This document shows positions 4,481-33,883 of a DNA stretch of 64,000 nucleotides, one piece after another. Made by a program: the position numbers and the translations under genes. Position 1 is the stretch's first letter. Every line of letters begins with the position of its first letter. The notes under the pieces were generated by a model, which worked only from the letters and a program-made list of their open reading frames with translations, made no database searches and had not been told where the DNA came from. Origin of the DNA: Myxococcota bacterium (lineage in GTDB: Bacteria; Myxococcota_A; UBA9042; PHBI01; JAWLBL01); assembly GCA_041687695.1 (NCBI GenBank), contig JAWLBL010000031.1, forward strand, positions 21,581 through 85,580, in the 5' to 3' direction.

Positions 4481-4483
4481 CGA

Positions 4484-5721: not shown

Positions 5722-5738
5722 TCGGCTCGCGAGTCCGA

Positions 5739-6054
5739 GACCCCTGCCGAGGGGTCTGGGAAGTTCCCGGCGACCTCTCCTGACCCCTGCCGGGGGGTCG
5801 AAGGAGCTCCCGGGATGGTTTCTGACCCCTCCCGAGGGGTCGAAGAAGCTCGCGGCGAGCTCTCCGGACCCCTCTGGTGGGGTCGAAAGAGCTCCCGGGA
5901 TGGTTTCTGACCCCTCCCGAGGGGTCGAAGAAGCTCGCGGCGAGCCCTTCTGACCCCTCGTGGGGGATCGAGAGAGCTCCCGGGATGGTCTCTGACCCCT
6001 CACGAGGGGTCGGGGGGAGCTCCGGGGAGCTTCCTGAACCCCGGCGCGGGGGTC
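5739..6054. repeat. Tandem array of 8 palindromes (GACCCCT-N4-AGGGGTC consensus), alternating 43/42-bp period
   Basis: Units start at 5739, 5782, 5824, 5867, 5909, 5952, 5994, 6037; two alternating linker types. Confidence 0.95.
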
Positions 6055-6214
6055 TCGCGTTGCAACGAGCCGCACGGAGCCGGGTCGGGTGGCCTTGTGC
6101 GAAGCAGGAAGCCTGTGGCAGGCTCGCCAGACCGGTCCAACCCATCGGGCGAACGCGGGCGATGCTTCGGGTGAGGCGTCGTCTGCGGCGCCGTCACTCG
6201 TGAAGGAGAGCGCC

Positions 6215-7078
6215 GTGCCAACGGAGCCTTTGGAGGAAGATGTGGAGATCGTGGGGGAGGACGGGGCCGTCGCGCCTCCGTTCGATCCGGCGAAGGGCAA
6301 ACAGTCGTTCGGGATCGTCGCCCCCCGGGTCGAGGCGGTCGCGCCCGGCGACGTCATCCCCATCACCGTGAACCTGCAGGACGCGGCGCACCGGGGGGTG
6401 TTCCTGGGACGTTGGGTGAACGAGCCTTCGCGTCGCGCCCGGTTCGACAAGCTGCACGCCGATCTCTTCGACCCGGCGGCGCTCGACGGGCTCGAAGACC
6501 TGGGCTGGGCCACCTACTACGCGCAGGTCGAGAGCGCCAAGGCGGCGGCTACGGCCGACACGCGACAGATCCCGGCCGAGCTGGCGTCGGCGGGCTATGC
6601 CCAGGCCCGGCGCATGGGTCGCGCGGCCGACTACTGGCTGAGCGACGAGCCCACGGTCGCGCTCGAGTTGGCGTCGATCCGGCAGGGCCGAGGCCACAAC
6701 GACCTGGCCAGCGATCTGCTGCGCTATGCCGACCTGTTCGAGGACCACGCGGCGCTGCTGTCGGTCGACACCAAGAACGTGCGGCCCGACGACCCGAAGA
6801 CGGCGCGCGAGCTGGCCGACCGCATCCTCGAGGCCATCTCGGACAGCCAACAGCCGACGCAGCGCCAGTGGCGCGAGCGCTCGGCGCGGCTGTGGACGCT
6901 GCTCAAGCGCGACTACGACGAGGTGCTGAAGACGGCCCAGTGGCTGTGGCGCAGCGAGCCGCACGTCACGGCGACGCTGCAGAGCATCCATGTGCCGCTG
7001 CGCCGCCGGGCCAAGGCCAAGGCGACGGCTTCGGCGCCCGAGGTCCAGCCCGCGCCGGCCGAGCCGCAGCCGGTCTGA
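6215..7078 (+). CDS. Hypothetical all-helical protein
   Basis: Host-like codon use; AAGGAG then GTG at 6215; GRGHNDLASDLLRYADLF segment; Ala/Pro tail. Confidence 0.75.
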   Translation: MPTEPLEEDVEIVGEDGAVAPPFDPAKGKQSFGIVAPRVEAVAPGDVIPITVNLQDAAHRGVFLGRWVNEPSRRARFDKLHADLFDPAALDGLEDLGWATYYAQVESAKAAATADTRQIPAELASAGYAQARRMGRAADYWLSDEPTVALELASIRQGRGHNDLASDLLRYADLFEDHAALLSVDTKNVRPDDPKTARELADRILEAISDSQQPTQRQWRERSARLWTLLKRDYDEVLKTAQWLWRSEPHVTATLQSIHVPLRRRAKAKATASAPEVQPAPAEPQPV

Positions 7079-7146
7079 GCCTGTCAGGGACTCGTCCCGC
7101 GCGCCCGTCCTCGGACCGGCGGCCGGCGCGCGGGGGGGCCTCAGCC

Positions 7147-7551
7147 TCAGGACGGCGCTGTCAGCGCGGGCTGGAGGTCGGTCTGCGAGAAGTCGTCGCC
7201 CTTGAAGAGCAAAGGCAGGCCGGTGGCTTTGGCCAGGGCGTATGAGAAGCAGTCGCCGAAGTTCAGGCGTGCGGGGTGACGGCCGCGGCCATAGCGCAGG
7301 AACGCTTCGCGGGCGAGCTGGGCGTGTGCGACCGTCACCGGGACCGTCTCGACCTCGGCGCCGCGCAGCAGCTCGTCGAGCTCGACGCCGCCAGGCTCGC
7401 CGTAGCGGACGGTGACGACGAGGCCGGGTTCGACGACGGTCGCGGCCGAGATGAGGCAGCCGCTGGCGCGTTCGATGGCGAGCGCGAAGGAGCCAGCCTC
7501 GGGCTCTTGCGCCAGGATGGCGATGACAGCCGAGGTGTCGAGGACGATCAC
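7147..7551 (-). CDS. vapC: VapC PIN-domain toxin
   Basis: [12 protein letters not shown]...[13 protein letters not shown]...LLFKGDDF. Confidence 0.95.
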
Positions 7552-7802
7552 GAAGGCAGACCGTGCTCGTCGTAGCCGAGGACCTCGTCGGGTGAGCGGT
7601 CGTCGAGGACGGGCAGCGCTGCGCAGCGCCGGCCGATCTCCATCAGCCGTTCGGACAGGGGACGCGCGTCTCGCTGGGCGCGCTTGCGCTCCAGCCGCTC
7701 ACGGAGCGAGGAGACGACCGCCTCGGTCAGGGTCTCACCCGTCAACTCGGCCAGCTCCCGCGCCAGCCGGTCGGCCTCGTCGTTCTTGATGCTCAGCGCC
7801 AT
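7548..7802 (-). CDS. vapB: VapB antitoxin (Rv0623-like)
   Basis: [29 protein letters not shown]...LGYDEHGLP; 4-nt overlap with vapC. Confidence 0.93.
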
Positions 7803-11737: not shown

Positions 11738-11739
11738 CC

Positions 11740-13116
11740 ATGGGTAGGTACGAGGCCATAGACGACATCCTCGACGAGGACCCGTCCGAGGAGGGGTGGG
11801 CCGAGCTGAGGGAGGTGCTCGAGGCGTGGACGCCGGCCTCGGTCGACCAGGCCGTGGCGCACGCCGAGGCGCGGCTGGAGGGATGGCCCTGGGCGCTGCG
11901 GGCCGCCGGGCCCGAGGACTGGGAGCCGATCGAAGCGGGCGAGGGGCTGCCCGTGTGGTGGCCGCTGGTGCGTCACCTCACGCTGGGACGCCATCAATAC
12001 GTCGACGATCCCGAGGTCCTCGCGGGGCTCTGGTCGTTGGAGGCCAGCGCGACCGAGCTCGAGCCGGACCTCGTGGGTGAGCTGACCGGGCTGCGCGCGT
12101 TGAGCATCGCGCACCTGGGCGCGGAGCTCGAGGATCTCGAGGCGCTCCGCCGGCTGGTGCACCTCGAGCGGCTCGAGGTGGTCGCCTGCAAGGAGCTGCA
12201 GGACATCGGCGCGCTGGCGGCGTTGAAGGCGCTTCGGGACCTGAGCCTGGCCGCGTGTGACGCGGTGCGCTCGGTCGCGCCCCTGTCCGGGCTGCGGTTG
12301 CGCACGCTCGATCTGAGGGGCACGCGGCAGATCGAGGCGCTGGCACCGGTTGGAGAGCTGCTGTCACTCGAGGCGCTGGTGCTGAGGGACTGCCCGTGGG
12401 TCGAGGATCTGGGCCCGCTTGGCGGGCTGCACAGCCTGCGCTCGCTCGACCTCGATCGGTGCTCCGCCGTCCGCGACCTGACGCCCGTCGGCCGACTGCG
12501 AGCGCTGGAGGTCTTGACGGTGGGCCGCGCCCGCGTCGAGGATCTCTCGCCGCTGGCCGCGCTGCCCCGTTTGCGCGAGCTGCGGTTGCGTGACCTGCCC
12601 GCCGTCACGAGCGTTCCAGAGCTGACGGTCGCCGACGTGCTCGAGATCGAGGGGCTGCCCCAGCTGACCTCGCTCAGCTTCCCCAAAGGCGAGCTGGAGC
12701 GCGCGCGCGTCGTCGCGTGTCCGAGGCTGCGAGCGGTGGGAAGGCTCGACCGGGCGCACGACGTGCAGAGCCTCGAGCTGCGCCGCGTCGGGCTGTCGGA
12801 CTTGCGGTCGCTGAGCGCCGCCCCGGGGCTCGTCGTGCTGACGGTCAGCGAGGCCGCTGACCTGGTGACGCTGGAAGGGCTCGGGTCCGCGCCGACCATC
12901 GAGCACCTCGTCGTGACGTACTGTCCGCGCCTGTCCGACATCTCGGCGGTCCGGAGCCTGCCGGACGTCCGCACCATGGATCTCAAGGGCTGCACGGGCT
13001 TGCACGATGCGAGCCCGCTGCTCGAGCTGATCTCGCTGGAGTCGGCGGATCTGTCGGGGTGCGACGCGCTGGACTGGCGGCCGCTCGACGAGGCCATGTT
13101 CGCGGTCTCGCGCTGA
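11740..13116 (+). CDS. Leucine-rich repeat protein (candidate immunity partner)
   Basis: Many LxxLxxLxxLxL units; no signal peptide; starts 2 nt after the DUF4157 gene. Confidence 0.88.
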   Translation: MGRYEAIDDILDEDPSEEGWAELREVLEAWTPASVDQAVAHAEARLEGWPWALRAAGPEDWEPIEAGEGLPVWWPLVRHLTLGRHQYVDDPEVLAGLWSLEASATELEPDLVGELTGLRALSIAHLGAELEDLEALRRLVHLERLEVVACKELQDIGALAALKALRDLSLAACDAVRSVAPLSGLRLRTLDLRGTRQIEALAPVGELLSLEALVLRDCPWVEDLGPLGGLHSLRSLDLDRCSAVRDLTPVGRLRALEVLTVGRARVEDLSPLAALPRLRELRLRDLPAVTSVPELTVADVLEIEGLPQLTSLSFPKGELERARVVACPRLRAVGRLDRAHDVQSLELRRVGLSDLRSLSAAPGLVVLTVSEAADLVTLEGLGSAPTIEHLVVTYCPRLSDISAVRSLPDVRTMDLKGCTGLHDASPLLELISLESADLSGCDALDWRPLDEAMFAVSR

Positions 13117-14080: not shown

Positions 14081-17000
14081 CTATTGGACCGTCTGCTCGA
14101 CGGTGGCCCTCGGCGCCGTGCCGCTCCAACCACCGATGACGAAGAAGAACGCGCTCTCCTGGGCCGACCCGGCGTAGATGGTCGGCAGCAGGATGGTGCC
14201 GCCGCCCAGCGCGTTCCAGCCGACCAGGTTCGGCGGGCCGCCTTCGCACTGGCCGCCGCCGGCCGAGCAGACCTGCGCCGAGATGCCGTTGGCCTGCGCG
14301 TTGCCGTTCTGCCCGCCGTGCAGGTAGACGAAGCCGCCGCCGTCGCCGTAGGCGTACCCGGCCGCGGCGTTCTGGGTGTTGTCGACCGACATCCAGCTGG
14401 TCAGCTGGCCGCCAGGACCGACCAGGCCCGCCTGCACGGCGTTGTTGGCGCTGCCACCGCTGGTGCGGCCGGGGCCGACCAGGATCCAGATGTTGCCGGC
14501 GCCGATGGCCGACACGTCGGTCTCGGTGAGCACCCAGTGGCCCAGCTCCGCGCGCGCCGGGCTGAGGATGTCCTCGACCTCGGTGAAGGGCGACACGGCC
14601 TGCAGCTCGCGCTCGAGCCCCGCGACCGAGCTGGGCGTGACGGTGACGGTGGCGAACTCGTAGCTGGCGAGGGTGGTGCCGGCCTCGTCGCGGCCGCCGA
14701 AGGCGTAGAGGTAGAAGGTGTCCGGGGCGTCGGGCGCGGGCACGGCGGTGACCGTCAGCGCCTCGCGCGCGGTGTTCAGCGTCGCGACCGGGTGCCAGAC
14801 CCCGAGGGAGCCGGCCGGCAGCGGCACGACGGACGGATCGGTGTCCTGGCCGGCGTCGGTGAAGGCGGTGGTGTCGCCGCCCGCGACCTCGGCCAGCAGC
14901 TCCACCTGGTCAGGGCTCGCGTCGGGGCCCGGCGTGCGGTAGACGCGGTAGCCCGAGGCGCCGGCCACCTCCTCCCACCGCAGCGTCAGCTCGAGCCCGG
15001 GGATGTCGGGCAGCTGGACCACCAGCACCTCGCCGGGCAGGCCCTCGCCGCCCGGGTTGGCGGGGTCGTCCTCGGGGAAGACCGCCGCGACCCGGTAGGT
15101 CCACAGGCCGGCGCCGGCGCCCGCGCCGGATTCCTCGTCCAGGCTGATGCCGATGTCGAAGATGGTCGGCGCGATGAGCGGGTTGAGCACCTGCGCGCGC
15201 AGCACCGTCGACACGGCGCCGTCGCCGTCGTGGCCGCCGACCAGGTAGACGTACTGACCGATGGTCGTGGCGCCTGCGAAGGTGCGCGGCGCCGGCAGCT
15301 CGCTGACCTGCAGGCTCCAGGCGCCCAGGTTGCCGAAGATGTCGAGGCTGGCCGACTCGACGGTGGCCTTGGCGGTGTCCAGCGTCCCGGCGTCGCCGCC
15401 GATGGCGTACAGGAAGCGGCTGGTGACCGTGGGGCGGCCGGGCGTCGTGGCGACCGCGCGGCGCGGCTCGACCAGCTCGGAGGTGAGCGACCAGGGGAAG
15501 AGGTTCTGGGCGGGCTCCTTGACGGAGACCGCCGAGAAGCGGAAGCGGGTGCCGTCCTCGTTGGTGACCACCACGATGCAGACGTTGCCGGCCGCGACGC
15601 TGCCGAGGTTGGCCGAGCCGGTGATGACGGTGCCCTCGGCGTTCACGGTAACGCCGGTGACCGGGGCCACGACCTCGGCGGAGCCGCCGAAGGGCCGGCA
15701 GACCAGCTCGACCGTGGCGTTGGCCGAGAAGTCCTCGCCGGTGATGGCGATGGGGGTCACCGAGTTGGCGTCGAGCGTCGATGGGGCGACGGCCAGGACG
15801 AGCGGCGGCGGGTCGGCGGTGATGGTGATGGCGTCCTCGAGCACGCCGACCGAGGCGTCGGGGTTGACGACGATGAGGTCGTACTGGCCCGGGTCCATGC
15901 CCTCGGGGATCACGGCGGTCAGCGTCGTGCTGTTGACGAAGAGGACCGCGCGCAGGTTGGTGGCGACGGCCGCGGTCGAGTCGGCGGGGTTGAGGTAGGC
16001 GCGCGGCGTGGACTGGAAGTCGACCTCGCCCTCGGCCGGGGCGGCGGCCTGCAGGGTGACGGCGGTGTCGCGGCCGGTCCAGGCGAACTCGGGGTCGATG
16101 TCGACCAGGGCCAGGACCAGGTCGTCGGTGACGGTGAGGCCGCCGTCGAGGACGCCGACGCAGCCGGTCTGGCTGGTCACGCGGACGCTCCAGGCGCCGG
16201 CGGCCAGGCCCGCCGGGACGTCGACCCGGATGCGGTTGGGCTCGCCGGGGGGCGACTCGCCGGCCAGCTCGACCACCTCGTCGTTCGGGCCGAGCAGCTC
16301 GACCGTCTGGGCGACGTCGGGCAGGCCGGCGGTGTAGATGGTGGCCTGGATCTGGATGCCGCTGTAGAGCACCGGCGGGTCGACGAAGAAGACCAGCGGG
16401 GTCGGCTGCACGTCGACCGCCAGGGCCAGGGTGTCGGCGCAGCCCTCGGCGTTGGAGACGGTCAGGTCGTAGGTCCCGGGCGGGACGGTCTCGCCGAAGC
16501 TCGCCTCGAGAGTGTTGGCGTCGACGAAGGCGACCGAGAGGGCGGGGAAGCTCTGGCCGTCGGCCTCGAGCAGGACGCTGGCGGCCGGGCTGAAGTTGGC
16601 GCCGCTCAAGGTCAGGGTGCCGCCGACCGCCGAGCAGAACTCGGTGGGGGCGACGGCGGTGACGCTGGGGACCGGGGTGACGAAGAAGACGTCGGTGGCG
16701 GTGACGCCGCAGCCGGAGGGGGCGGGGTTGGTGACCGAGACGGTGACCGGGCCGTCGGAGAGCTGGGAGGGGTCGATGGTGGCGGTGAACTCGGTGCAGC
16801 TCTCGACCGCGAGGCCGGGGACGCCGAGGTCGGTGCAGCCGTCGACGGCGGTGACCGCGCCGGCGTTGCCGTCGACCTCGATGAGGGGGTCGACGCCGGC
16901 CACGCGGAGGAAGCCGGTGCCGGTGAAGGTCACCGCCTGGGCGGCGGCGGCGTTGCAGACGCTGGCCGGGCTGGCGCCGAGGACCTGGACCGGCGGCGGG

Positions 17001-18847
17001 ACGGCCAGCGCGCCCTCGGAGACGCTGGCGCACGAGGCCGGATAGGGGTTGGTGACGGTGATGGGCGGGGTGCCCTCGGTCAGGGCGCCCTGGGCGACGG
17101 TGACGGTGAGGGAGGTGCACTCCTCGACGGCGAAGGGGCCGAGCTGCTTGGCGGTGCAGCCGTCGGCGGCGTCGGTGGCGACCGCGGTGTCGCCGATGAC
17201 GACCGCGGGCAGCTCGGTGCCGTCGACGCGGAGGAAGCCCGTGCCGGTCAGGACCAGGGTGCGTGAGCCCTCGTCGGTGCAGACCAGGGCAGGGTCGGCG
17301 GCGTCGACCACCGGCGGGGCGACGACGGGGATCTCGTCGGCGAAGGTGTCGGAGCAGCCGGCGGGCGAGGGGTTGGTGACGGCGACGGTGGCGGCGCCGT
17401 CGGTGACGCTGGCGGGGTTGATGGTGACGTCGAGGGTGGTGCAGGCCTGCACCGCGTGGCCGGGGACGGTCACGTCGGCGCAGCCGCCGGGGGCGACGGC
17501 GTCGGCGGAGAGCGCGGCCCCGTCGACGGTCACCTCGGGTTTGACCGCGTCGACCACGAAGAAGTAGGTCCCGGTCAGCTGCAGGACCTGGTCGCTGCCG
17601 TCGTCGCAGAGGCTGGGCGGCTCGATGTCGGCGATGGTGGGCGGCGGGACCAGGACCAGGGCGGTCGAGGTGGAGCCGGAGCAGCCGGCGGGCGGCGGGT
17701 TGGTGACCACCAGGGTGGGGGTCTCGGGCGCCGCGACGGTGGCCTGGGGGACGACGATGTTCAGGCGGGTGCAGGTGCGGACCGTGTGGCCCTGGGTCTC
17801 GAGATCGGCGCAGCCTTCGACGCCGGTGACGGTGATGTCGGCGCCGTCGAGGGTCACCGCCGGCAGCTGGCCGTCGACCTCGAGGTAGCCCGTGCCCTCG
17901 AGCTGCACGTCGCGGGTGCCCTCGGCGTGGCAGGCCATCGAGGGCACGGCGGCGTCGATGGTGGGCGGCGGGACGACGCGCAGGTTGACCGCCTCTTCGC
18001 TGGTGCAGGCGGCGGTCTCGGGGTTGCCCACGGTCACGCCGGGGAAGCCGACCGGGACGGAGTCCTGGGCGAAGGTGACCGTGGCGGTGCGGCACAGCTG
18101 GGCGTCGACGCCTTTGTGGGCGACGGGCGTGCAGTCGGTGAAGGCGTCGGCGGCGAACGCGGTCTGGACGCCGTCGATGGCGAAGCGGGCCTCGGCGCCG
18201 TTCAAGGTCAGGAAGGACTGGCCGCTGAAGGTGACGGTGCGGGGTCCCTCGGCGAGGCAGACGAGGCCGGGCGCGGGGGGCGTGTCGAGGGTGGGCTTGT
18301 CGACGACGGCCAGGGCGCCGACCGAGGTGGCGTGGTTGGTGTTGGGGTTGGTGACGCGCACGTCGTAGACGCCGGCGGGCAGCGGGCCTTCGGTGGCGTC
18401 GGGCAGGGTGACGGCCTGGTCGACGGTCAGGGTCATCTGCGTCTGGCTCTGCCAGGACAGCAGGGCGGCGTTGGTCGCGTCGGGCAGGCCGCTGTAGACG
18501 ACCTCGGCCGCGTCGCCGGGGGCGCCGTCGAGGGTGAGGCCGCGGACCAGGGTGACCGTGGGCAGGGCGGCGCGGGGGTCGTCCGGGATGTCGATGGGCA
18601 CCGGCGAGAAGTCGGTGCCGGTGATGACCACGTCGGTGGTGAGCTGGTGGCGGCAGATGAGGCCGGGGTCGATCGGCAGCGCGGTCCCGGCCGGGGGGAT
18701 GGCCTCGGGGGTCTCGACCGCCGGGGTGGGCCCGGTGACCTCGTCGCTGCAGCCCAGCGGGCCGGCGGCCAGCAGCGCCGCGCTCGCCATCGTCCGCGCC
18801 AGCCGCCACGCCGGCCGGCGCACTCCGTCGTTCACACGCTTGCCCAT
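14081..18847 (-). CDS. Large lipoprotein with IPT/TIG-like repeats and C-terminal Kelch repeats
   Basis: Lipobox PLGC; repeated P..C..LTGTGF..VTNP.P..C units; Kelch LYAIGG, VYLVGGHDG, LYAFGG, FFVIGG. Confidence 0.85.
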   Translation of the reverse strand: MGKRVNDGVRRPAWRLARTMASAALLAAGPLGCSDEVTGPTPAVETPEAIPPAGTALPIDPGLICRHQLTTDVVITGTDFSPVPIDIPDDPRAALPTVTLVRGLTLDGAPGDAAEVVYSGLPDATNAALLSWQSQTQMTLTVDQAVTLPDATEGPLPAGVYDVRVTNPNTNHATSVGALAVVDKPTLDTPPAPGLVCLAEGPRTVTFSGQSFLTLNGAEARFAIDGVQTAFAADAFTDCTPVAHKGVDAQLCRTATVTFAQDSVPVGFPGVTVGNPETAACTSEEAVNLRVVPPPTIDAAVPSMACHAEGTRDVQLEGTGYLEVDGQLPAVTLDGADITVTGVEGCADLETQGHTVRTCTRLNIVVPQATVAAPETPTLVVTNPPPAGCSGSTSTALVLVPPPTIADIEPPSLCDDGSDQVLQLTGTYFFVVDAVKPEVTVDGAALSADAVAPGGCADVTVPGHAVQACTTLDVTINPASVTDGAATVAVTNPSPAGCSDTFADEIPVVAPPVVDAADPALVCTDEGSRTLVLTGTGFLRVDGTELPAVVIGDTAVATDAADGCTAKQLGPFAVEECTSLTVTVAQGALTEGTPPITVTNPYPASCASVSEGALAVPPPVQVLGASPASVCNAAAAQAVTFTGTGFLRVAGVDPLIEVDGNAGAVTAVDGCTDLGVPGLAVESCTEFTATIDPSQLSDGPVTVSVTNPAPSGCGVTATDVFFVTPVPSVTAVAPTEFCSAVGGTLTLSGANFSPAASVLLEADGQSFPALSVAFVDANTLEASFGETVPPGTYDLTVSNAEGCADTLALAVDVQPTPLVFFVDPPVLYSGIQIQATIYTAGLPDVAQTVELLGPNDEVVELAGESPPGEPNRIRVDVPAGLAAGAWSVRVTSQTGCVGVLDGGLTVTDDLVLALVDIDPEFAWTGRDTAVTLQAAAPAEGEVDFQSTPRAYLNPADSTAAVATNLRAVLFVNSTTLTAVIPEGMDPGQYDLIVVNPDASVGVLEDAITITADPPPLVLAVAPSTLDANSVTPIAITGEDFSANATVELVCRPFGGSAEVVAPVTGVTVNAEGTVITGSANLGSVAAGNVCIVVVTNEDGTRFRFSAVSVKEPAQNLFPWSLTSELVEPRRAVATTPGRPTVTSRFLYAIGGDAGTLDTAKATVESASLDIFGNLGAWSLQVSELPAPRTFAGATTIGQYVYLVGGHDGDGAVSTVLRAQVLNPLIAPTIFDIGISLDEESGAGAGAGLWTYRVAAVFPEDDPANPGGEGLPGEVLVVQLPDIPGLELTLRWEEVAGASGYRVYRTPGPDASPDQVELLAEVAGGDTTAFTDAGQDTDPSVVPLPAGSLGVWHPVATLNTAREALTVTAVPAPDAPDTFYLYAFGGRDEAGTTLASYEFATVTVTPSSVAGLERELQAVSPFTEVEDILSPARAELGHWVLTETDVSAIGAGNIWILVGPGRTSGGSANNAVQAGLVGPGGQLTSWMSVDNTQNAAAGYAYGDGGGFVYLHGGQNGNAQANGISAQVCSAGGGQCEGGPPNLVGWNALGGGTILLPTIYAGSAQESAFFFVIGGWSGTAPRATVEQTVQ

Positions 18848-19157: not shown

Positions 19158-19976
19158 TCAGCCGAGGAGCTTCTGGGCGGCCTGCTCGAGGTTGCTGGTG
19201 GGGTAGAGGAGGTCGACGCCGCAGGGGAGGTCGGCGAGGCGGTCGAGGGCGGCCGTGACGAAGGGGCCGGGGATGATGGAGCCGTGCTGGGGGACCAGGG
19301 CGGTGATGGGGAAGGGGCGGACCTTGTCGATGAAGCCGCGCAGGGCCCGGTTGGAGGCCATGTAGAAGACGTGGAAGGGCACCATGGCCTTCCAGTGGGC
19401 CTCGAAGTCGTCGATGACCAGGCGCCAGTCCTTCTCGATGGCGGCGCAGACGTCGCCGGTGAGGAGGAAGCCCGAGCGGCTGTCGAAGGTGACCATCGCC
19501 TCGGGGAAGTGCAGGAAGGGCGCGGTGAGGAAGCCGATGGAGCCGCCGGCGACGTCGAGGTAGCTGGTGTCGTTGGGCGAGACGTCGAGCCAGCTCACGT
19601 CGGGCGAGAAGCCGTAGTAGGGCAGCAGGACGCGGGCGCGCGGGGTGGTGACCAGGGTCACGTCCGGGTTGATGGCGATCCAGTCGGGCAGCGAGTCGCA
19701 GAGGTCGGGGTCCTGGTGGTGCAGGACGATGTGGGTCACCGACTCGGGCGGGATGATGGCGGCGACGCGCTCGCGGACCTGGGCGAAGTGGTGAAAGGAC
19801 GAGCCCGGGTCGAAGAGCAGGCGGAGGTCGCCGTTGACGATGAGGTAGGCGTTGCAGCGAAAGGGGCTGTCCTCCTGGCTGCCGACCCAGTACACGGCGT
19901 GCTCGCCGTCGTCGTACAGGGTCACCGGCCGGGTGAAGTCGACCTCGCCGCCCATCAGCGCGGGGATGCGGTTCAT
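19158..19976 (-). CDS. ODP-type (oxygen-binding di-iron) MBL-fold protein
   Basis: CNAYLI, FDPG, HHQDPDLC, PFLHFP, TGDV, FHVFYM, PQHG; no flavodoxin domain. Confidence 0.85.
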   Translation of the reverse strand: MNRIPALMGGEVDFTRPVTLYDDGEHAVYWVGSQEDSPFRCNAYLIVNGDLRLLFDPGSSFHHFAQVRERVAAIIPPESVTHIVLHHQDPDLCDSLPDWIAINPDVTLVTTPRARVLLPYYGFSPDVSWLDVSPNDTSYLDVAGGSIGFLTAPFLHFPEAMVTFDSRSGFLLTGDVCAAIEKDWRLVIDDFEAHWKAMVPFHVFYMASNRALRGFIDKVRPFPITALVPQHGSIIPGPFVTAALDRLADLPCGVDLLYPTSNLEQAAQKLLG

Positions 19977-19990
19977 GGTCGCCCTCCCCC

Positions 19991-20350
19991 TCAGGCCCGG
20001 CCGAGGCCGCGCAGGTAGTCGCGCATGCGGAAGCGCAGGTAGCCGATGTTGCCGCTCGAGCCCAGCAGGACCGCCACGAAGCGCTGGGCGCCGTGGTCGA
20101 CCTTGATGAGCAGGTACACGCGGCTGGCCGTGATGAGCACCTCGTCGTTGGAGCCCAGATCGATGGCGCCGCCCATCGCGCGGTACAGGGCGTCGTAGCT
20201 GCGGATCACCTGCAGGAAGGGCTCGCGGCCCTCGGCCAGATCCAGGTCGCCCGCCGAGTGGGTCGAAAACCCCGCGCCGTCCAGGCTCCCCGCCGCCGCG
20301 GCCAGATAGCCGGGGATCTCTTCCTCGATGGTACGAAAGAGCTGTTCCAT
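19991..20350 (-). CDS. Roadblock/LC7-like small protein
   Basis: 119 aa, EEEIPGYLAAAAGSLDG...DEVLITASRVYLLIK...GNIGYLR. Confidence 0.7.
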   Translation of the reverse strand: MEQLFRTIEEEIPGYLAAAAGSLDGAGFSTHSAGDLDLAEGREPFLQVIRSYDALYRAMGGAIDLGSNDEVLITASRVYLLIKVDHGAQRFVAVLLGSSGNIGYLRFRMRDYLRGLGRA

Positions 20351-20406
20351 GTGACTCCGTGTCCTCCTCGGGGGCGCCACCGCGGCGCCCATCGCCCCAG
20401 GGGCTC

Positions 20407-20422
20407 TGCAATGGACATGCCG
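20407..20422 (-). promoter_or_regulatory. Sigma54-type promoter candidate for roadblock-ODP operon
   Basis: Minus strand CGGCATGTCCATTGCA (GG-N10-GC) about 57 nt upstream of ATG 20350. Confidence 0.55.
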
Positions 20423-20525
20423 TACCGCCGGCGGCCGCGCAGCGGGGGGGTCGGCCAGCAGCCCCGCCGCGCGCTCGGGCTCCTCGTGCGTCACGGCGGG
20501 CGGGTCGGGTGTGGGACATGGCACT

Positions 20526-20541
20526 CGTGACTTGTGTCACA
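20526..20541. promoter_or_regulatory. CRP/FNR-like palindromic site
   Basis: CGTGA-CTTGTG-TCACA, 9/10 match to TGTGA-N6-TCACA, in a divergent intergenic region. Confidence 0.5.
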
Positions 20542-20665
20542 CTCCACTATCCCGCGCGCGGCGATGGCCCCGAGGGGCGGCCGGAGCGCGCGGTGGCGCG
20601 GGCGAGGCGCTTGGCCCGCTTGTTGCTTCGTGCCCCTGCCGAGAGGCCACCGACGGGGGGTGACG

Positions 20666-22345
20666 GTGCTGGATTGGCTGTTTCGAAGCGCGAGTGACCG
20701 GACGGAGTCGGCGGCCGCCAGTGTGGACGAGGCGCCGGCGGCGGCCGTCCCCGCGGGCTCGAGCGTCGCGGCGCCGGACGTGGGGGCCGTGCTGTCGGAG
20801 CGCTATCGCCTGGACGGGCTGCTGGGGCGCGGCGGCGCGGCCTCGGTGTACCGGGGCTGGGATCTGCTGCTGGAGCAGGCGGTGGCGGTCAAGGTCCTGC
20901 GGCCCGACGCCGCCAGCCTCTCGACCAGCGGGTTCAACGATCTGCGGCGCGAGGCGGTGGCCGCGATGCAGCTCAGCCACCCGCTCATCGCGCGCGTGTT
21001 CAACTACGAGCGCCATGACGGCCTCGAGTTCCTGGTGATGGAGCTGGTGCCGGGCAAGAACCTGCACGACCTGCGCCGCGAGCGCGCCGAGCGCCGCCTG
21101 TCGGTCGACGAGACGGTGCGCATCGCGCGCGACATGCTCGAGGCGCTGGCCTACGCGCACGACGCCGGGGTGGTCCACAACGACATCAAGCCGCGCAACG
21201 TGCTGATGGACCCGCGCGGGGCCCTCAAGGTCTGCGACTTCGGGCTGGCCGAGCTGGTGTCGCGCAAGGACCGGCCGAGCGACCGCATCACCGGCACGCC
21301 CGGTTACCTGAGCCCCGAGCGCATCCTGACCAAGCCCTCGGACGGGCGCAGCGACCTGTACTCGCTGGGGGCGACCCTGTACGAGCTGGCGGCCGGGCGG
21401 CCGCCCTTCGGCAAGGCGCCCGACGAGGCGCTGCGGGGCCACCTGCTGGAGCCGGTGCCGGCCAGCCCGCACCTGCCGCTGGCGCTCGACCGGGTGCTGC
21501 GGCGGGCCATGGCCAAGAACCCCGACGAGCGCTTCCAGAGCGCGCGGCAGATGGCCGAGGCGCTGGACGCGCTGGACCGGGGGCGGGCGCTGGCGCGGGC
21601 CGCGGGCCCTGCGTCACCGTCGCGGGTGGAGGCCGAGCCGGTCGCGCAGTCGGAGGAGAGGCCCGAGGTGACGGCCGCGGAGCCCGAGCGGGCGCAGGCC
21701 CCCGAGGCGCAGGCCCCCGAGGCGCCGCCCGGCATGGCCGAGGTCGACGTCGGCAAGGTGCGCTTCGACGAGCGCGAGTACGAGGTGGCGCCGTTCCACC
21801 TGGACCGCCTGCCGGTCACCAACGACGACTACGCCGCCTATGTGAAGGCGACCGGCGCCATGGCGCCCGCCTGGTGGCCCGGCAGCCGCCCGCCCAAGGA
21901 CAAGGGCCGCCATCCGGTGGTGGGGGTCACCCTCGAGGACGCCGAGCGCTACGCGGCCTGGCGCGGCAAGCGGCTGCCGACGACGCTCGAGTGGGCGGCG
22001 GCGGCGCGCGGGGCCGAGGGGCGGCGCTATCCGTGGGGCGAGACCTGCGACCAGAGCGCGTGCAACTGCCCGCTGAAGGCGAACGACACGGCGCCGGTCG
22101 ACGCGCACCCCGGCAGCGGGACGCCCGAAGGGGTGCTCGATCTGTTCGGCAACGTCTGGGAGTGGACCGACGTGGACGAGCGGGTCGCGCCGGCCGAGGA
22201 GGGCTACCGCTACGTGCTGGGGGCCTCGTACCAGCACCGGTGCAGCGCCCCGAACGGCGCCCTGCCCCGCACCCTGGTCAGCCGCCACGGCGAGTACCGC
22301 TACCTGGGCTTTCGCTGCGCCTGGGACCGGAGGATGGGACGATGA
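20666..22345 (+). CDS. Ser/Thr protein kinase fused to FGE-sulfatase (SUMF1-like) domain
   Basis: LGRGGAASVY, VAVK, HNDIKPRN, DFG, GTPGYLSPE; then PVTN..HPVVGV..RLPT..EW..GNVWEW..LGFRC; start uncertain. Confidence 0.92.
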   Translation: MLDWLFRSASDRTESAAASVDEAPAAAVPAGSSVAAPDVGAVLSERYRLDGLLGRGGAASVYRGWDLLLEQAVAVKVLRPDAASLSTSGFNDLRREAVAAMQLSHPLIARVFNYERHDGLEFLVMELVPGKNLHDLRRERAERRLSVDETVRIARDMLEALAYAHDAGVVHNDIKPRNVLMDPRGALKVCDFGLAELVSRKDRPSDRITGTPGYLSPERILTKPSDGRSDLYSLGATLYELAAGRPPFGKAPDEALRGHLLEPVPASPHLPLALDRVLRRAMAKNPDERFQSARQMAEALDALDRGRALARAAGPASPSRVEAEPVAQSEERPEVTAAEPERAQAPEAQAPEAPPGMAEVDVGKVRFDEREYEVAPFHLDRLPVTNDDYAAYVKATGAMAPAWWPGSRPPKDKGRHPVVGVTLEDAERYAAWRGKRLPTTLEWAAAARGAEGRRYPWGETCDQSACNCPLKANDTAPVDAHPGSGTPEGVLDLFGNVWEWTDVDERVAPAEEGYRYVLGASYQHRCSAPNGALPRTLVSRHGEYRYLGFRCAWDRRMGR

Positions 22346-23190
22346 GGTTGGACCTCGACGGGTTGGATGGGGTGTTCCGGGCGCCGAGCGCCGGGGCGGC
22401 CCGGGAGCGGGCGCCGGAGATCGCCGCGGCGGCGGAGCCGGCGGTGGTCGGGGCGGTGGTGTCCAGGCTGCCGCGGGCGGACCTGGGGTCGGAGCCGATG
22501 CTGCGGAGCGTCGCGGCGCCGGCGCGGGCGAGGCGCGGCCGGGCGCCGGCCTGGGCGGCGGCGGCGCTGGCGCTGGCCGTGGGGGCGGGCGCGCTGTGGT
22601 GGGCGCGGGGCGCGGCCGAGGTCGACAGGCCGGCGCAGCAGGCGGAGGTCACGGCGGCGGCGCCGGCCCAGCCTGCGACCGGCGAGGTGCGGACCGCGGA
22701 GCCGGCCGTCGTTCCGGCCAACGACGAGCCACGGGCTGGGTCGGGTGACTCGCCGGCCATGGCGACGCGGGTCGAGGCGCCGGCGCCGGCGCCGGCGGTC
22801 GCGGTCGCGCCGGAGGAGGCGGTGCAGGTCCCCGAGGAGCGCGAGCCGGCGGCGCCGCCCGCTCCGAGGCGAGCGATCGTGGCGTTCGCCTTCGAGGGGG
22901 CGGAGGCCGCGGCGGACGACATCGCGCGGGCGCTGGCCGTGGCCGCCGGCTGCGACGGGGTGACCGAGGTCCGGGGCCACACCTGCGCCATCGGCGCCGA
23001 GGAGGCCAACCGGCACCTCGGGCTGCTGCGCGCGCGGGCGGTGCGCGACCAGCTGGTGGCGCGCGGGGTGGCGCCGGAGCGGCTGCGGGTGCGGTCGGCG
23101 GGCGCGAGCGCCCCGGTCGCCTCGAACGCCACCGAAGCGGGCCGGCAGCGAAACCGCCGGGCCGAGGTGCGGTGCCTGCAAGGGCCGTGA
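22342..23190 (+). CDS. Membrane-anchored OmpA/MotB C-terminal domain protein
   Basis: TM segment, Pro/Ala linker, GHTC..G.EEANRHLG..RARAV...GRQRNRRAEV; ATGA overlap with kinase. Confidence 0.88.
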   Translation: MRLDLDGLDGVFRAPSAGAARERAPEIAAAAEPAVVGAVVSRLPRADLGSEPMLRSVAAPARARRGRAPAWAAAALALAVGAGALWWARGAAEVDRPAQQAEVTAAAPAQPATGEVRTAEPAVVPANDEPRAGSGDSPAMATRVEAPAPAPAVAVAPEEAVQVPEEREPAAPPAPRRAIVAFAFEGAEAAADDIARALAVAAGCDGVTEVRGHTCAIGAEEANRHLGLLRARAVRDQLVARGVAPERLRVRSAGASAPVASNATEAGRQRNRRAEVRCLQGP

Positions 23191-23227
23191 GTGAGTGAGT
23201 CGAGTGAGTGAGTGAGTGAGTGAGTGA
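23187..23227 (+). repeat. (GTGA)n microsatellite, 3+6 copies with one interruption
   Basis: GTGAGTGAGTGA-GTCGA-(GTGA)6 beginning at the OmpA stop codon. Confidence 0.9.
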
Positions 23228-23262
23228 CGGGCGCGAGCCCAACCATCGCAGGAGAGTGAGAC

Positions 23263-23646
23263 GTGGCACTTCCGAGAGCCGAGAGAAACCAGCGCATCGA
23301 GCGAAACCTGGCCGACCTGACCGCGCTGCGCGGCGTGACCACCGCGGCCATCGTGGACGGCGACGGGTTCGTGACGCACATCCGGCGCGACTTCGAGGTG
23401 GACACCGACGCCCTGGGCGCGGCGGTGCAGATCATGTTCAGCTCGGCGCAGCGGGCGGCCGAGCAGGTGGGCCAGGAGTCGTCGCGCCTGGTCGTGTCCG
23501 AGAACAAGGACGGGCTCATCCTGCTGGCGCCGCTGACCCGCGGGTTCGTGCTGGTGCTGGTCGCCGACGCCTCGGCCATGCTGGGGACGGTGCGGTTCGA
23601 GATGAAGGAGACCGTGCCCGAGCTCAACGAGCTGTTCGGAGGTTGA
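23263..23646 (+). CDS. Roadblock/LC7 (MglB-like) protein
   Basis: LADLTALRGVTTAAIVDGDGF...LVLVADASAMLGTVRFEM; AGGAG RBS. Confidence 0.88.
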   Translation: MALPRAERNQRIERNLADLTALRGVTTAAIVDGDGFVTHIRRDFEVDTDALGAAVQIMFSSAQRAAEQVGQESSRLVVSENKDGLILLAPLTRGFVLVLVADASAMLGTVRFEMKETVPELNELFGG

Positions 23647-23647
23647 C

Positions 23648-24082
23648 GTGCACTGGCTGGCCGGAGAGTTCGAGGCGGTGGCCGCGCGGGCCGAGGCGCT
23701 CGCCGCGCTGCGGCGGCGGCGGGCGGCGGGCGAGGACGTGCCGCGGCGCGAGGAGGCGAGGGCGCGGGCCGCCTTCCGCGACCGCCTGGGCGAGCTGGTC
23801 GAGGCGGTGAGCCGGCGGCCCGGCGTGCTGGGCTGCGTGGCCGCGCACGAGGGGCTGCTGGTCGCCGCCGCGGGCGACGCGCCGGACTTCGAGGCGGTCG
23901 CCGCCGTGGCCCAGTCGGCGGTGCTGTCGGGGCACGACGCGGCGGACAAGCTGCGGCTGGGCGACCTGCGGCAGGTCCTGGTGGTGGGCGAGCGCGGCAA
24001 GCTGGCCGTGCTGCGCGTCGGCGACATGACCGTGGGTGTGCTGGCCCCCGAGGAGGTGAGCCTGGCGGCGGCGCTGGGCTGA
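23648..24082 (+). CDS. Roadblock/LC7 protein with helical N-terminal extension
   Basis: PGVLGCVAAHEGLLVA...LGDLRQVLVVGERGKLAV. Confidence 0.8.
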   Translation: MHWLAGEFEAVAARAEALAALRRRRAAGEDVPRREEARARAAFRDRLGELVEAVSRRPGVLGCVAAHEGLLVAAAGDAPDFEAVAAVAQSAVLSGHDAADKLRLGDLRQVLVVGERGKLAVLRVGDMTVGVLAPEEVSLAAALG

Positions 24083-29050: not shown

Positions 29051-30838
29051 TCAGTCGGCGCCGGGGGCGCCGGCGAGGAGCCAGCGGGTCATGAGGCTCA
29101 GCTCGTCGTCGGTCAGGTCGGGGAAGGGGGGCATCGAGCGCTCGACCTGGTCGGCCTCGAGCGCGCCGCCGTAGTAGCGGTGCTGGGTGGCGTCGCGGAT
29201 GAGGCCGCGGGTCCACTCGAAGCCCATGTAGCCGTCCAGATCGGGGCCGATGGCGGTCGGGTCGTAGGCCTTGGCCAAGTGCGACACGCCCGGGGTGTTG
29301 TGGCAATCGGTGCAGCCGTCGTCCCACAGGGCGCGGGCCGCCTCGGTGACCTCGGGGGGCACCGCGTGGTCGGGGTCGCCCGACAGGCTGGTCAGCCAGC
29401 GGGCCAGGGTGGCGCGGTCCTCGGCGCTGCCGCCCCAGGCCTCCATGCCGCCCTTGAGCACGGTCTTGCCGAAGAAGCGGTCGTGGTCGGGGTTGGCCAG
29501 GAAGGCGTCGACCCGAAGGGCGGTGCCCCAGCCGCCGAGCAGCGGGCCGGCGCCGTCCTCGGCGGTGGCGTCCTGGGCGTGGCACGAGGCGCAGCCCTTG
29601 TCGGCGAAGAGCTGGGCGCCCTGGGCGAGCACGACCCGGCCTTGAGCGTCGATGCCGCCCAGCTGCGCCAGGCGGGCGGTCTGCTCGGCCTCGGCGTCGG
29701 CCTGGGCGCGGGCCTCGAGGAAGGCCGGATCGGTCGCGTCCGAGCGCATCGCCACCAGGGTCAGCGCCCCGGCGCCGCCGAACAGCAGCAGGAAGGGGAC
29801 CAGCACCTTGGCGGGCGGGCGGGTCCAGCGCTCGCCGTCGCGCTTGCGGTCGATGAAGGGGATGGCCAGCAGGAAGGCGACCGCCAGGCCGGGGATGACC
29901 ACGGTGCCGACGAGGGTCATCGGCCCCTCGAAGTACTTGAGCAGCTGGAACAGGAACAGGAAGTACCACTCGGGGCGCGCCTCGTAGCCGCTGGCGGGGT
30001 CGGCCGGGGCCTCGAGGCTGACGCCGACCAGCACGGCCATGGCGACCAGGATGGCCAGCACGACGCCCGCGAAGAGCGTGTCGTACAGCATCTGGTAGGG
30101 CCAGAAGGGCTGGGTCTTGCGGGCCAGCTCGGCGGGGGCGCGCTTGGGGTGCGGGGTGACGCCGTGGCGGCGGAACAGGCCCACGTGGCCGACGATGAAC
30201 AGGGTGAGGGTGATGGGCAGGATGAAGACGTGGATGGCGTAAAAGCGCGTCAGCGTCTGGTTGCCGTACTCGGGGCCGCCCTGCAGCACGGTCTGGATGA
30301 ACTCGCCGCCCGGGGTGCCGCCCATGATGCTGGTCGCGACCTGGGTGGCCCAGTAGCCCTTCTGATCCCACGGCAGCAGGTAGCCGGTCAGGCCGAAGCC
30401 CAGCACCAGGAGCAGCATGACGCAGCCCATCAGCCAGTTGGCCTCGCGGGGCTTGCGGTAGGCGCCGTAGAGCAGGACCTGCGTCATGTGCATCAGGCAC
30501 AGGACGATCATGGCCGACGAGCCCCAGTGGTGCAGGCCGCGGACCAGCCAGCCCAGCGTCATCTGGTTCTGGATGTAGTAGACGCTGCCCCAGGCGTCGG
30601 TGGTCGTCGGGGCGTAGGCGCTGGCCAGGGTGATGCCCGTGACGGCCTGCAGGACGAAGGTGAAGAGCAGGGCGCTGCCGAAGACGTAGGCGAAGCGAGC
30701 GCCGCCGGGGACCGGCTCGTTGCCGGCGGCGGCGAGCAGGGCGCGGTAGCCGGTGCGCTGGTCGAGAGCGTCGGCGAAGCGCTGCAGGCGCCCGGGGGCG
30801 GGCTCCGAGGGCTCGGGGAGCGGCTTGGCGGGTTCCAT
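29051..30838 (-). CDS. Cytochrome b fused to dihaem cytochrome c
   Basis: GWLVRGLHHWGSS, TGYLLPWDQKGYWA, TLTRFYAIH, PEWY; C-term CASCH and CTDCH. Confidence 0.93.
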   Translation of the reverse strand: MEPAKPLPEPSEPAPGRLQRFADALDQRTGYRALLAAAGNEPVPGGARFAYVFGSALLFTFVLQAVTGITLASAYAPTTTDAWGSVYYIQNQMTLGWLVRGLHHWGSSAMIVLCLMHMTQVLLYGAYRKPREANWLMGCVMLLLVLGFGLTGYLLPWDQKGYWATQVATSIMGGTPGGEFIQTVLQGGPEYGNQTLTRFYAIHVFILPITLTLFIVGHVGLFRRHGVTPHPKRAPAELARKTQPFWPYQMLYDTLFAGVVLAILVAMAVLVGVSLEAPADPASGYEARPEWYFLFLFQLLKYFEGPMTLVGTVVIPGLAVAFLLAIPFIDRKRDGERWTRPPAKVLVPFLLLFGGAGALTLVAMRSDATDPAFLEARAQADAEAEQTARLAQLGGIDAQGRVVLAQGAQLFADKGCASCHAQDATAEDGAGPLLGGWGTALRVDAFLANPDHDRFFGKTVLKGGMEAWGGSAEDRATLARWLTSLSGDPDHAVPPEVTEAARALWDDGCTDCHNTPGVSHLAKAYDPTAIGPDLDGYMGFEWTRGLIRDATQHRYYGGALEADQVERSMPPFPDLTDDELSLMTRWLLAGAPGAD

Positions 30839-30849
30839 CGGGGGCGACC

Positions 30850-31434
30850 TCAGGCGACGGGGACGCGGTCGGCGGTGCCGGTGCGGTAACGGACCCAGCG
30901 CACCTCGAGGGTGCCGGCGCGGACGCGCCACTCGAGCGGGTCGAGGCCGCGCGGGGCGGGGTTGGGGGTGCCGTCGGCGTGGGGGAGCAGGCCGCCCTCG
31001 ACGGTGAACGAGCTGCGGTGGCACGGGCACAGGTAGCCGCCGCCCGAGGGGCGGACCGAGCAGCCCAGGTGCGGGCAGGTCGCCGACAGGACGCGGAAGT
31101 CGGCCTCGCCGAGGCGCTGCACGAGCACGCTGCCGACGGGGACGCCCGGCTGGTGGAGCCACGCGTCCTGGCGGTCCTCCTTGAGGACCACGCGCTCGGG
31201 GGCGGCGCCCACCGCGAAGCGAGCCACCGCGCCGGCCGGGGACCAGACGCCGCCGTCGTCGATCGGGGGACCGGCGTCTGGCTTCTTGCGCAGCGGGGTG
31301 AGCAGCATGGCGACCGGGCCGGCGGCGATGGCGGCGCCGATCAGGGCGCCGAAGCCGGCCGTGAGGCGGCCGAGGAAGCGGCGGCGGCCCAGCTCGGCCG
31401 CGTCGGGCGCGGGCGTGTTCGTGTCGTGGCTCAT
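30850..31434 (-). CDS. Rieske 2Fe-2S protein of bc-type complex
   Basis: Tat motif GRRRFL, TM helix, CPHLGC and CPCH. Confidence 0.93.
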   Translation of the reverse strand: MSHDTNTPAPDAAELGRRRFLGRLTAGFGALIGAAIAAGPVAMLLTPLRKKPDAGPPIDDGGVWSPAGAVARFAVGAAPERVVLKEDRQDAWLHQPGVPVGSVLVQRLGEADFRVLSATCPHLGCSVRPSGGGYLCPCHRSSFTVEGGLLPHADGTPNPAPRGLDPLEWRVRAGTLEVRWVRYRTGTADRVPVA

Positions 31435-31553: not shown

Positions 31554-33758
<2,205 letters not shown>

Positions 33759-33883
33759 GGGGGGACTCTCCTCGCGCGCCGGTGCCGGCCCCGCGGCCCT
33801 GCGCGCGCCGTTGGCGAACCACTCGCGGATCGCGAGCGTAGTCGGGCGCGACGGGGCCGGCCATCGTTTCACCGGCGAGAGGT

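Follow-up and report, generated by a model that had tools for sequence, protein, structure and literature searches.

Proteins of the ODP family are described as sensors of O2 and iron (PMC7319448, PMC6978683, PMC7666581, PMC7785958), and are known from operons with chemoreceptors or other signaling genes, or as fusions (PMC7319448). For roadblock proteins of the MglB family, a 2014 survey counted 328 of 749 members without a neighboring GTPase, and describes these orphans as experimentally uncharacterized (PMC4316618). Both families meet in the locus presented here, which lies in a stretch of 64,000 nucleotides (the window) from a Myxococcota genome (assembly GCA_041687695.1, contig JAWLBL010000031.1). 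Six genes at 19158-24082 of the window encode an ODP, three roadblock proteins named RB2, RB5, and RB6, a Ser/Thr kinase with an FGE-like domain, and a membrane anchor with an OmpA-like domain. The evidence leans, by a little, towards a signaling cassette that is induced at low oxygen and works without a GTPase, in which a membrane-tethered roadblock scaffold would connect an interchangeable sensor with a kinase/FGE effector. In what follows, G and L numbers denote genomes and loci, G000 being the host of the window (7.97 Mb, completeness 99.27%).

Translation of the window returns six open frames in the arrangement of the original prediction: the genes of the ODP and RB2 on the minus strand, transcribed away from those of the kinase-FGE protein, the OmpA-domain anchor, RB5, and RB6 on the plus strand (Table 1). 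Five of the six proteins are named by Pfam and the sixth, RB2, is recognized by its predicted fold, so that the composition first proposed for the cluster holds. The tight packing of the plus strand through ATGA overlaps, on the other hand, is found only at the junction between the kinase and OmpA genes. The OmpA and RB5 genes are separated by 72 bases holding a (GAGT)n run, and RB5 and RB6 by 1 base. This run is the only one of at least four GAGT units in the genome, and could slip or be an assembly feature. The GC content of the cassette is 0.746, versus 0.732 in the remaining window.

Table 1. Coordinates of the cassette genes, of the elements in their spacers, and of the variants with a V4R gene. 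Positions refer to the window unless a locus is given.
Feature	Position	Strand	Evidence or remark
Di-iron protein of the ODP family with metallo-beta-lactamase fold, 272 aa; stand-alone and without transmembrane helix (P0001)	19158-19976	-	PF19583, E 2.9e-53
Divergent ODP-tied roadblock RB2, 119 aa (P0002)	19991-20350	-	AlphaFold2 model and Foldseek; directly upstream of the ODP
Sigma54-type (-24/-12) promoter-like site facing RB2-ODP	20407-20422	-	2 mismatches to the consensus
Two abutting TGTG-N8-CACA-type palindromes	20510-20525, 20526-20541	.	Candidate enhancer common to both promoters
Sigma54-type promoter-like site facing the kinase-OmpA-roadblock run	20612-20626	+	1 mismatch to the consensus
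Cytoplasmic non-RD Ser/Thr kinase with C-terminal FGE-like (C-type-lectin-fold) domain (P0003)	20666-22345	+	Alternative start 20660
Anchor: DxDGLDG near the N-terminus, then a Pro/Ala linker, a single hydrophobic helix, and a periplasmic domain of OmpA type that has GHTC (P0004)	22342-23190	+	PF00691, E 8e-14
(GAGT)n simple repeat	23187-23227	+	Just after the OmpA stop, in the OmpA-RB5 gap; as far as seen, not a conserved element
Core roadblock RB5, 127 aa (P0005)	23263-23646	+	PF03259, E 9e-11
RB6, 144 aa, N-terminal HWL helical extension and short C-terminal helix (P0006)	23648-24082	+	PF03259, E 7e-10
V4R variants of the cassette	L059:5029-11581, L060:7204-9826		V4R in place of ODP and RB2

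A search with an RB2 alignment gave 17 related loci, 10 in genomes and 7 in metagenomes, among which L030, L031, and L032 are duplicates or near-duplicates of L021, L022, and L019. Six of the 17 (L016, L017, L020, L021, L024, and L029) have the complete gene set on a single contig, and two of these, L020 and L029, have it in one orientation, in the order kinase-OmpA-RB5-RB6-RB2-ODP. In G401 (L025 and L056) and G305 (L019 and L058) each half has its own contig and is placed at or close to the end of it, and in the remaining loci the sequence stops no more than about 2 kb upstream of RB2. The flanks differ between genomes, and the 56 flanking genes scanned include neither a conserved seventh gene nor a GTPase. 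That the cluster is more than a chance arrangement follows from its recurrence, with all six genes, amid unrelated flanks. The original prediction had regarded the two halves as one module and made this depend on their occurring together elsewhere, as they do in these six loci, twice in a single orientation.

The spread of the cassette was surveyed in 401 genomes sampled evenly from the phylum, with the host genome counted in. RB5 (at least 57% identity) is present in seven of them and the cassette-type ODP (at least 61%) in five, all of which also have RB5. Both RB5 genomes without a cassette ODP have V4R within the run. In G004 there are genes for FGE, OmpA, V4R, RB5, and RB6 plus a kinase; in G175 there are OmpA, V4R, RB5, and RB6, and a different contig of this genome holds two kinase-FGE genes of the cassette type. 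Since V4R takes the place of the ODP and RB2 in these genomes, the core of the cassette is formed by the anchor, RB5, and RB6 (plus FGE), with an exchangeable sensor slot. The same figures bear on whether the cassette consists instead of two separate units that are simply co-regulated, an ODP-RB2 pair signaling elsewhere and a unit of anchor, RB5, RB6, and kinase that receives an input of its own; we consider this unlikely. Such a division would suit the usual layout in two divergent transcription units, the existence of anchor-RB5-RB6 without the ODP in G004 and G175, and the remote likeness of RB2 to RB5 (hhalign probability 10). It is opposed by the cassette-type ODP never being found without RB5 in the 401 genomes (5/5), by the six genes forming one run at two loci, and by the insertion of a V4R sensor in the run where ODP-RB2 is missing.

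Beyond the phylum, the locus L016, titled Gammaproteobacteria, has a cassette GC of 0.52 against 0.50 in its flanks and an ODP that nests inside the cassette clade, a placement that fits transfer between phyla. RB5 is found in only one of three genomes of the order of G410, which belongs to this gammaproteobacterial spread. Not all database titles could be used to define the range: L021 and L025 are titled Alphaproteobacteria and Enterobacteriaceae, with a GC of 0.70-0.74, and the L025 genome falls in the phylum of the window.

A second arrangement of similar parts exists in order-level relatives. There, 3 of the 10 loci examined combine an ODP of a distant clade with two roadblocks, one of them membrane-bound; two of the three also have a transmembrane OmpA gene, and none has MglA. 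L039:6898-9331 and L040:9062-11735 (G016 and G011) encode a membrane-bound roadblock, a roadblock, a transmembrane OmpA protein, and an ODP, and in L036:9672-12873 of G004 two ODPs surround a pair of roadblocks, one of which is membrane-bound. None of these three runs was found to contain a GTPase. A recent origin shared with the cassette was rejected, given that the ODPs belong to distant clades whose deep placement is unsure owing to long branches.

The absence of a GTPase is a constant trait of these loci. A hidden Markov model built from five MglA genes in the loci of relatives, which recovered its five training genes, has no match in 26 cassette-related loci (316,127 bases, some duplicates included). 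The missing GTPase is hence shared by the homologous clusters and is not a loss particular to the window, the other possibility that the original prediction had raised. In the host genome, the best match of the model has an E of 0.073, tblastn returns none at E 0.1, and scans for GTPase motifs and for the Roc family return none either; two weak Arf-family matches lie in long frames. Among nine other genomes with the cassette or a variant, several of them incomplete, MglA was not found in four (G176, G410, G412, and G413), while matches elsewhere in the genome are strong in G401, G305, and G175 and weak in G296 and G411. As MglA is found neither in the host nor in four of nine other genomes, the cassette does not need it. 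The cluster also lacks a chemoreceptor gene, as had been noticed at the outset, both within it and beside it; none occurs among the 56 genes scanned at related loci, and the three chemoreceptor loci of the host sit on contigs other than that of the cassette.

These data also bear on the idea that the roadblocks regulate an MglA polarity GTPase in trans, in the manner of MglB and MglC, which is highly improbable. In its favor, the nearest relatives of RB5 outside the cassette (about 30% identity) stand in MglAB loci, next to V4R or protoglobin genes, and three of the genomes just named, with weak matches in two more, have an MglA elsewhere. The host genome and G176, G410, G412, and G413 have none that could be found, and the relay into the polarity or motility machinery suggested in the original prediction is left without support. 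The MglAB loci with V4R or protoglobin genes are a plausible ancestral setting of RB5. One run in L064:2641-8028 encodes a Ser/Thr kinase, a protoglobin, an RB5-like roadblock, a DUF4388 protein, MglA, and MglB, bringing together a gas sensor, a roadblock, and a GTPase.

The connection of the cassette with oxygen relies on its promoters as well as on the ODP. The spacer between the two halves contains back-to-back sigma54-type sites, and the palindrome at 20510-20525 lies 102-103 bases from both of them. The 300 bases upstream of RB2 were compared in 11 loci, using a sigma54 consensus and expectations from shuffled sequences. A sigma54-type site directed towards RB2 is present in 8 of the 11 spacers (0.27 expected) and one facing the opposite way in 7 (0.37 expected), and the TGTG-N8-CACA box, with at most one mismatch, in 9 (0.79 expected), this pattern having been chosen after viewing the spacers. 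A CRP-family factor may act at the palindrome, but the promoters look sigma54-type. An FNR site was considered for the palindrome and set aside as a poor reading, its best matches having 2-5 mismatches.

A matrix made from seven boxes of other genomes was then applied to 171 promoters of G000, where the two of the cassette rank 5-6. The ranks above them are held, in order, by the promoters of a sigma70-family factor, hemN-cco, ccoG, and a regulator, while Usp and a NO-reductase-like/CBS pair follow at ranks 11-13. Five of the 13 boxed promoters outside the cassette lead hemN-ccoSNOQP, ccoG, ric/ytfE, Usp, and a sigma54 response regulator, and a sigma54 site together with the box also precedes ccoN in the three other cassette genomes tested. 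The back-to-back sigma54-type promoters and the box shared with cbb3-oxidase operons suggest that the cassette belongs to a low-oxygen regulon. This sharing of promoters is the only evidence for the oxygen link that is independent of the ODP label, and gives the proposed O2 connection a second footing. The sigma70-family factor (L075:3306-4205), which has the best-scoring box of all 171 promoters, suggests a sigma cascade under the low-oxygen regulator.

The sigma54 response regulator of the host is encoded on contig C35 and has homologues of 64-68% identity in G176, G401, and G411, and a homologue of 67% identity is encoded beside the cassette in L021. A search for it in G296 and G410, two genomes with neither sigma54 site in the spacer, did not find it. 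On C35 (L085:401-11308) the regulator belongs to a Usp-Usp-REC-PAS kinase-sigma54 regulator run, with two more kinases nearby and a stressosome-like operon of protoglobin-STAS, STAS, anti-sigma-kinase, and SpoIIE genes; this run is a candidate for the master low-oxygen system of the genome. A comparable regulon is described for NmpRSTU of Myxococcus xanthus (PMC11841059), where a sigma54 activator regulates itself and a cbb3 oxidase, a P-type ATPase, HemN, Usp, a CBS protein, and a protoglobin kinase. The activator type and the list of targets are mirrored in the host genome; the available part of PMC11841059 mentions no cassette like the present one.

The sensor proposed for the cassette is a clear member of its family. 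The ODP scores 181 bits against PF19583, whose curated cut-off is 27.2, has no flavodoxin domain, and matches flavodiiron proteins only partially and weakly. Its best structural counterparts are PDB 6qrq (E 6.7e-37) and 6qnm (E 5.7e-31), with which the metal-site set (HQDPD, a later His and Asp, and Gln-His at motif 5) aligns. Residues H87, Q88, D89, D91, H156, D175, Q230, and H231 are invariant in 69 of 69 close homologues, and the Gln at motif 5 belongs to the ODP-type metal site as described in PMC7785958. The full ODP-type residue set is thus intact, and binding of Fe(II) and O2 as a di-iron-peroxo species is predicted for this clade. The cassette ODPs form one clade in the tree (support 99/97), sister to the ODPs of Thermovibrio and Desulfurobacterium and with about 30-35% identity to the ODPs of Treponema denticola and Thermotoga maritima. 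G296 encodes a second ODP-like protein (L110:1480-2307, 53%) in which VEDPD replaces HQDPD and which is possibly metal-free; within 1.5 kb of its gene no roadblock was seen.

RB2, the partner of the ODP, is placed immediately upstream of it in all 17 loci. It has no Pfam or NCBIfam match, and its roadblock label holds because the AlphaFold2 model (pLDDT 95) matches roadblock, MglB, MglC, and LAMTOR structures in Foldseek, with a best E of 1.4e-6 and TM scores of 0.54-0.78 among the matches listed. The predicted fold thereby agrees with the roadblock that the original prediction had placed beside the ODP. The protein forms a small discrete family, with six representatives at E 1e-30 or below among 1.84 billion, and its distant kin are the C-terminal roadblocks of REC-DUF4388 proteins. 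Atlas look-ups for the cassette returned only roadblock-like or unnamed clusters. As circumstantial support for the pairing, 20 of 49 RB2 clusters have a longest contig of exactly the same size as that of a cassette-clade ODP cluster, a coincidence seen with no other ODPs. A complex prediction of two RB2 copies with the ODP, made with own alignments and with controls not folded, gave a median of 0.19 against a mark of 0.32 (runs of 0.42, 0.19, and 0.09) and weighs neither for nor against a contact. A recent duplication of RB5 was rejected as the origin of RB2, the hhalign probability being only 10.

The other two roadblocks, both above the Pfam cut-off, are the only Robl_LC7 matches in the whole host genome. 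RB5 is the most conserved gene of the cassette, with 211 homologous clusters, the best 120 of which show 62-99% identity, and is retained in the V4R variants. RB6 adjoins it in every locus that has either gene at high identity. According to an alignment of 11 copies, RB6 ends about ten residues past its last strand, and truncated roadblocks in Ragulator and dynein are described as leaving a groove for a partner helix (PMC10933270).

The anchor is a low-complexity protein whose length varies from about 230 to 1000 residues among copies, with a helix of hydropathy 1.58 here and 1.76-3.18 in seven homologues. A DxDGLDG-type motif precedes the single helix in all eight other full-length homologues examined; it is predicted to be cytoplasmic and appears in three copies in the anchor of G004 (L059). 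A conserved and once-tripled motif has the pattern of a docking site, for which DxDGLDG is a candidate. OmpA-like domains usually carry GHTD, the Asp of which binds the peptidoglycan stem peptide together with an Arg. The domain found here meets the OmpA profile and keeps the Arg, and the Asp is replaced by Cys or Ser in the copies examined. The protein was originally described as peptidoglycan-anchored, a view that is weakened by the GHTC motif, with which binding to the wall is not assured.

The last component, P0003, combines a kinase domain (Pkinase, E 2.3e-45) with an FGE-sulfatase domain (E 3.2e-33). The former keeps the Hanks-type set of residues (K78, E98, H173-N174-D175, N180, and D193-F-G). 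HND takes the place of HRD in all eight intact copies aligned, and 4 of the 52 kinases of the host genome are non-RD by this motif. The kinase has no transmembrane helix and most copies begin with a short amphipathic segment resembling [WF]LRxLxG. A hydrophobic-moment test, performed without a background, picked other segments in 3 of 10 rows, and the membrane-targeting helix therefore rests on the alignment. The kinase is intact in the window and dispensable elsewhere, being dead in two and missing in two of 12 copies, which weakens the case for it as an obligatory output of the relay. In L059, the FGE protein holds a zinc ribbon where the kinase would be.

The constant part of P0003 is the FGE-like domain, in which C468, H526, and C528 are invariant in 12 of 12 copies and C470 is kept in at least 90%, a set absent from the three other FGE-like domains found by motif in the host genome. 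Its fold gives Foldseek TM scores of about 0.8 to SUMF2, ToxD, and FGE, with Cu-FGE among the best matches. FGE binds Cu through a Cys-x4-Cys after the GGS motif. His-x-Cys occupies that place in all 12 copies and no Cys-x4-Cys is present there, so that by the tests made this domain is not an FGE enzyme. These residues are central to the view, which we rate as rather improbable, that the cassette carries out redox chemistry and not signaling: the ODP would store or deliver O2, peroxide, or iron, perhaps to a metal site formed by C468, C470, H526, and C528, and the roadblocks would hold the pair at the membrane. The low-oxygen co-regulation, the constancy of the FGE domain and not of the kinase, its invariant Cys/His set, and the resemblance to Cu-FGE agree with it, and the hemerythrin of the NmpR regulon offers a possible parallel for such storage or delivery. 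It is weakened by the loss of the FGE Cys-x4-Cys in favor of His-x-Cys, by the ability of V4R to stand in for the ODP, and by the description of ODPs as sensors in signaling operons (PMC7319448, PMC6978683).

The same protein is the reason to weigh an anti-phage or conflict system, in which the FGE (FGS) domain would sense the invader and the kinase would be the effector. The FGS and transmembrane OmpA domains do occur in conflict systems (PMC7159879), the kinase matches PD-T4-6/Mad6 models, and the cassette is patchy, with RB5 in 7 of 401 genomes and a further copy in a gammaproteobacterial metagenome-assembled genome (MAG) at host-like GC. We regard this explanation as very improbable nonetheless: the PADLOC matches are confined to the kinase domain and to weak OmpA/ZorB hits, four of the six proteins (the ODP and the roadblocks) have none at all, the FGE domain is conserved instead of hypervariable, no defense genes are found among the flanking genes scanned, and the promoter type is that of respiratory genes. 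The word "roadblock" occurs 0 times in the available text of PMC7159879.

In the signaling mechanism that we favor, the sigma54 activator of the low-oxygen regulon of the host, presumably the C35-type regulator, would bind one box and turn on both halves of the cassette. RB5 and RB6 would pair as a heterodimer and attach to the DxDGLDG motif on the cytoplasmic side of the anchor, fixing the complex to the envelope. Judging from its family, the di-iron site of the ODP would take up Fe(II) and O2 and its state would be passed via RB2 to the scaffold, the place of both proteins being filled by a putative V4R ligand-binding sensor in two genomes. For the output, which is the weakest step, the kinase-FGE protein would be recruited by the scaffold, with its conserved FGE-like domain as the probable point of contact, and the non-RD kinase would be switched by binding rather than by phosphorylation of its activation loop. 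Where the kinase is dead or lost, recruitment itself would constitute the output. Cells adapted to low oxygen could in this manner detect changes in O2 or Fe(II), as happens upon re-oxygenation. A more specific formulation, which we offer tentatively and with considerable doubt, pictures a Ragulator-like device without a GTPase, in which the extended envelope tether, with its DxDGLDG repeats, gathers roadblock dimers and a plug-in di-iron or V4R sensor switches the non-RD kinase via the Cys3His lectin-fold domain.

Several observations weigh against the proposed mechanism. The contacts between cassette proteins and the target of the kinase are all inferred, the pairing of the dimers is deduced from gene order, and O2 binding in the cassette ODP clade is predicted from family residues only. 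The loci come from related MAGs and are not independent samples. Pseudokinases are found in L019 and L022 and the kinase domain is absent from L025 and L059, among the 12 copies aligned. G175 has its cassette-type kinase-FGE genes away from its anchor run, and therefore FGE, and not RB5/RB6, could be the partner of the DxDGLDG motif. As for regulation, a sigma54 site with the box is present at only one of four other hemN loci, and the box is not enriched genome-wide at sigma54-like promoters (15/176, versus 17/176 for a control palindrome). The pattern was, moreover, picked from the spacers it describes, and the hits of the control palindrome were not annotated. The L018 spacer lacks the sigma54 pair although its genome (G411) has the regulator, and the pair is likewise not seen in L020 and L029, where the six genes are co-oriented, or in the V4R loci. 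Finally, the NmpR consensus is GCGCA-N5-TGCGC (two sites upstream of a sigma54 promoter, PMC11841059), which differs by eye from the TGTG-N8-CACA of the cassette.

The rest of the window contains other genes of interest. The left neighbor of the cassette, which is not conserved with it, is a gene for a 1588-residue lipoprotein-like protein with IPT/TIG and Kelch matches (14081-18847), located beside a gene for an outer-membrane beta-barrel. A Rieske protein and a cytochrome b fused to c-type heme domains are encoded at 29051-31434, with a PAS hybrid kinase nearby (31554-33872). An 801-residue protein with an eCIS-core domain lies in a lower-GC stretch and is followed by a leucine-rich-repeat protein (9332-13116), a combination that looks like a toxin/immunity-type pair. 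The genes at 113-7802, at the start of the window, are presumably Type I restriction-modification-like genes and a VapBC-like pair.

If the favored reading is true, roadblocks would act as GTPase-independent adaptors connecting gas or ligand sensors with Ser/Thr kinases, a logic otherwise known from the eukaryotic Ragulator, and ODPs would gain an output beyond chemotaxis, cyclases, and histidine kinases. If the Ragulator-like device is, orphan roadblocks would acquire their first function, and O2 would be linked directly to Ser/Thr phosphorylation. In either case, the cassette represents a compact test case for orphan roadblocks, with six small to medium proteins, a candidate docking peptide, low O2 as a candidate inducer, and a box that can be mapped. 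The natural swap of sensors (ODP and RB2 versus V4R) and the kinase-dead and kinase-less variants are available for comparison, and the promoter box outlines a low-oxygen regulon in uncultured Myxococcota.

By the tests made, the cassette is not an MglAB system, a conservon, or an ODP-chemoreceptor pair. A full-text literature search, which the neighborhood lists of the primary ODP paper (PMC6660769) fall outside of, found no published description of it, and ODP-coupled signaling with a GTPase-free scaffold logic is possibly new. The MglA/MglB/MglC systems of Myxococcus and Thermus, the CvnABCD conservons, and the Group 1-5 MglA systems (PMC4316618), for which a small GTPase within four genes is expected, share with it the presence of several roadblocks per locus, but the cassette has no GTPase (in 26 loci and the host genome), histidine kinase, or CvnC. 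The Group 1 Rup GTPase loci of the same survey resemble it in having a single-pass protein with a C-terminal OmpA domain in a signaling cluster; they center on the GTPase and end in a c-di-GMP enzyme or a histidine kinase, and the available part of PMC4316618 describes no ODP, roadblock, or Ser/Thr kinase in them. The ODPs of Treponema denticola (6qnm/6r9n) and Thermotoga maritima (6qrq/6qwo) are stand-alone members of the same family whose metal residues are kept here, although the partner gene in the cassette is a roadblock and not a chemoreceptor, cyclase, or histidine kinase. Ragulator, with the LAMTOR1 tether and the LAMTOR2/3 and LAMTOR4/5 heterodimers, is similar by analogy only, in that an extended membrane anchor is proposed to hold roadblock dimers. 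LAMTOR2/3 (MP1-p14) also scaffolds a kinase. The cassette differs from it in having no Rag GTPases, three roadblocks instead of four, and a tether with an OmpA-like domain at its periplasmic end, and P0004 is not expected to be homologous to LAMTOR1. The short C-terminal helix of RB6, in turn, recalls the groove and partner helix of truncated roadblocks (PMC10933270).

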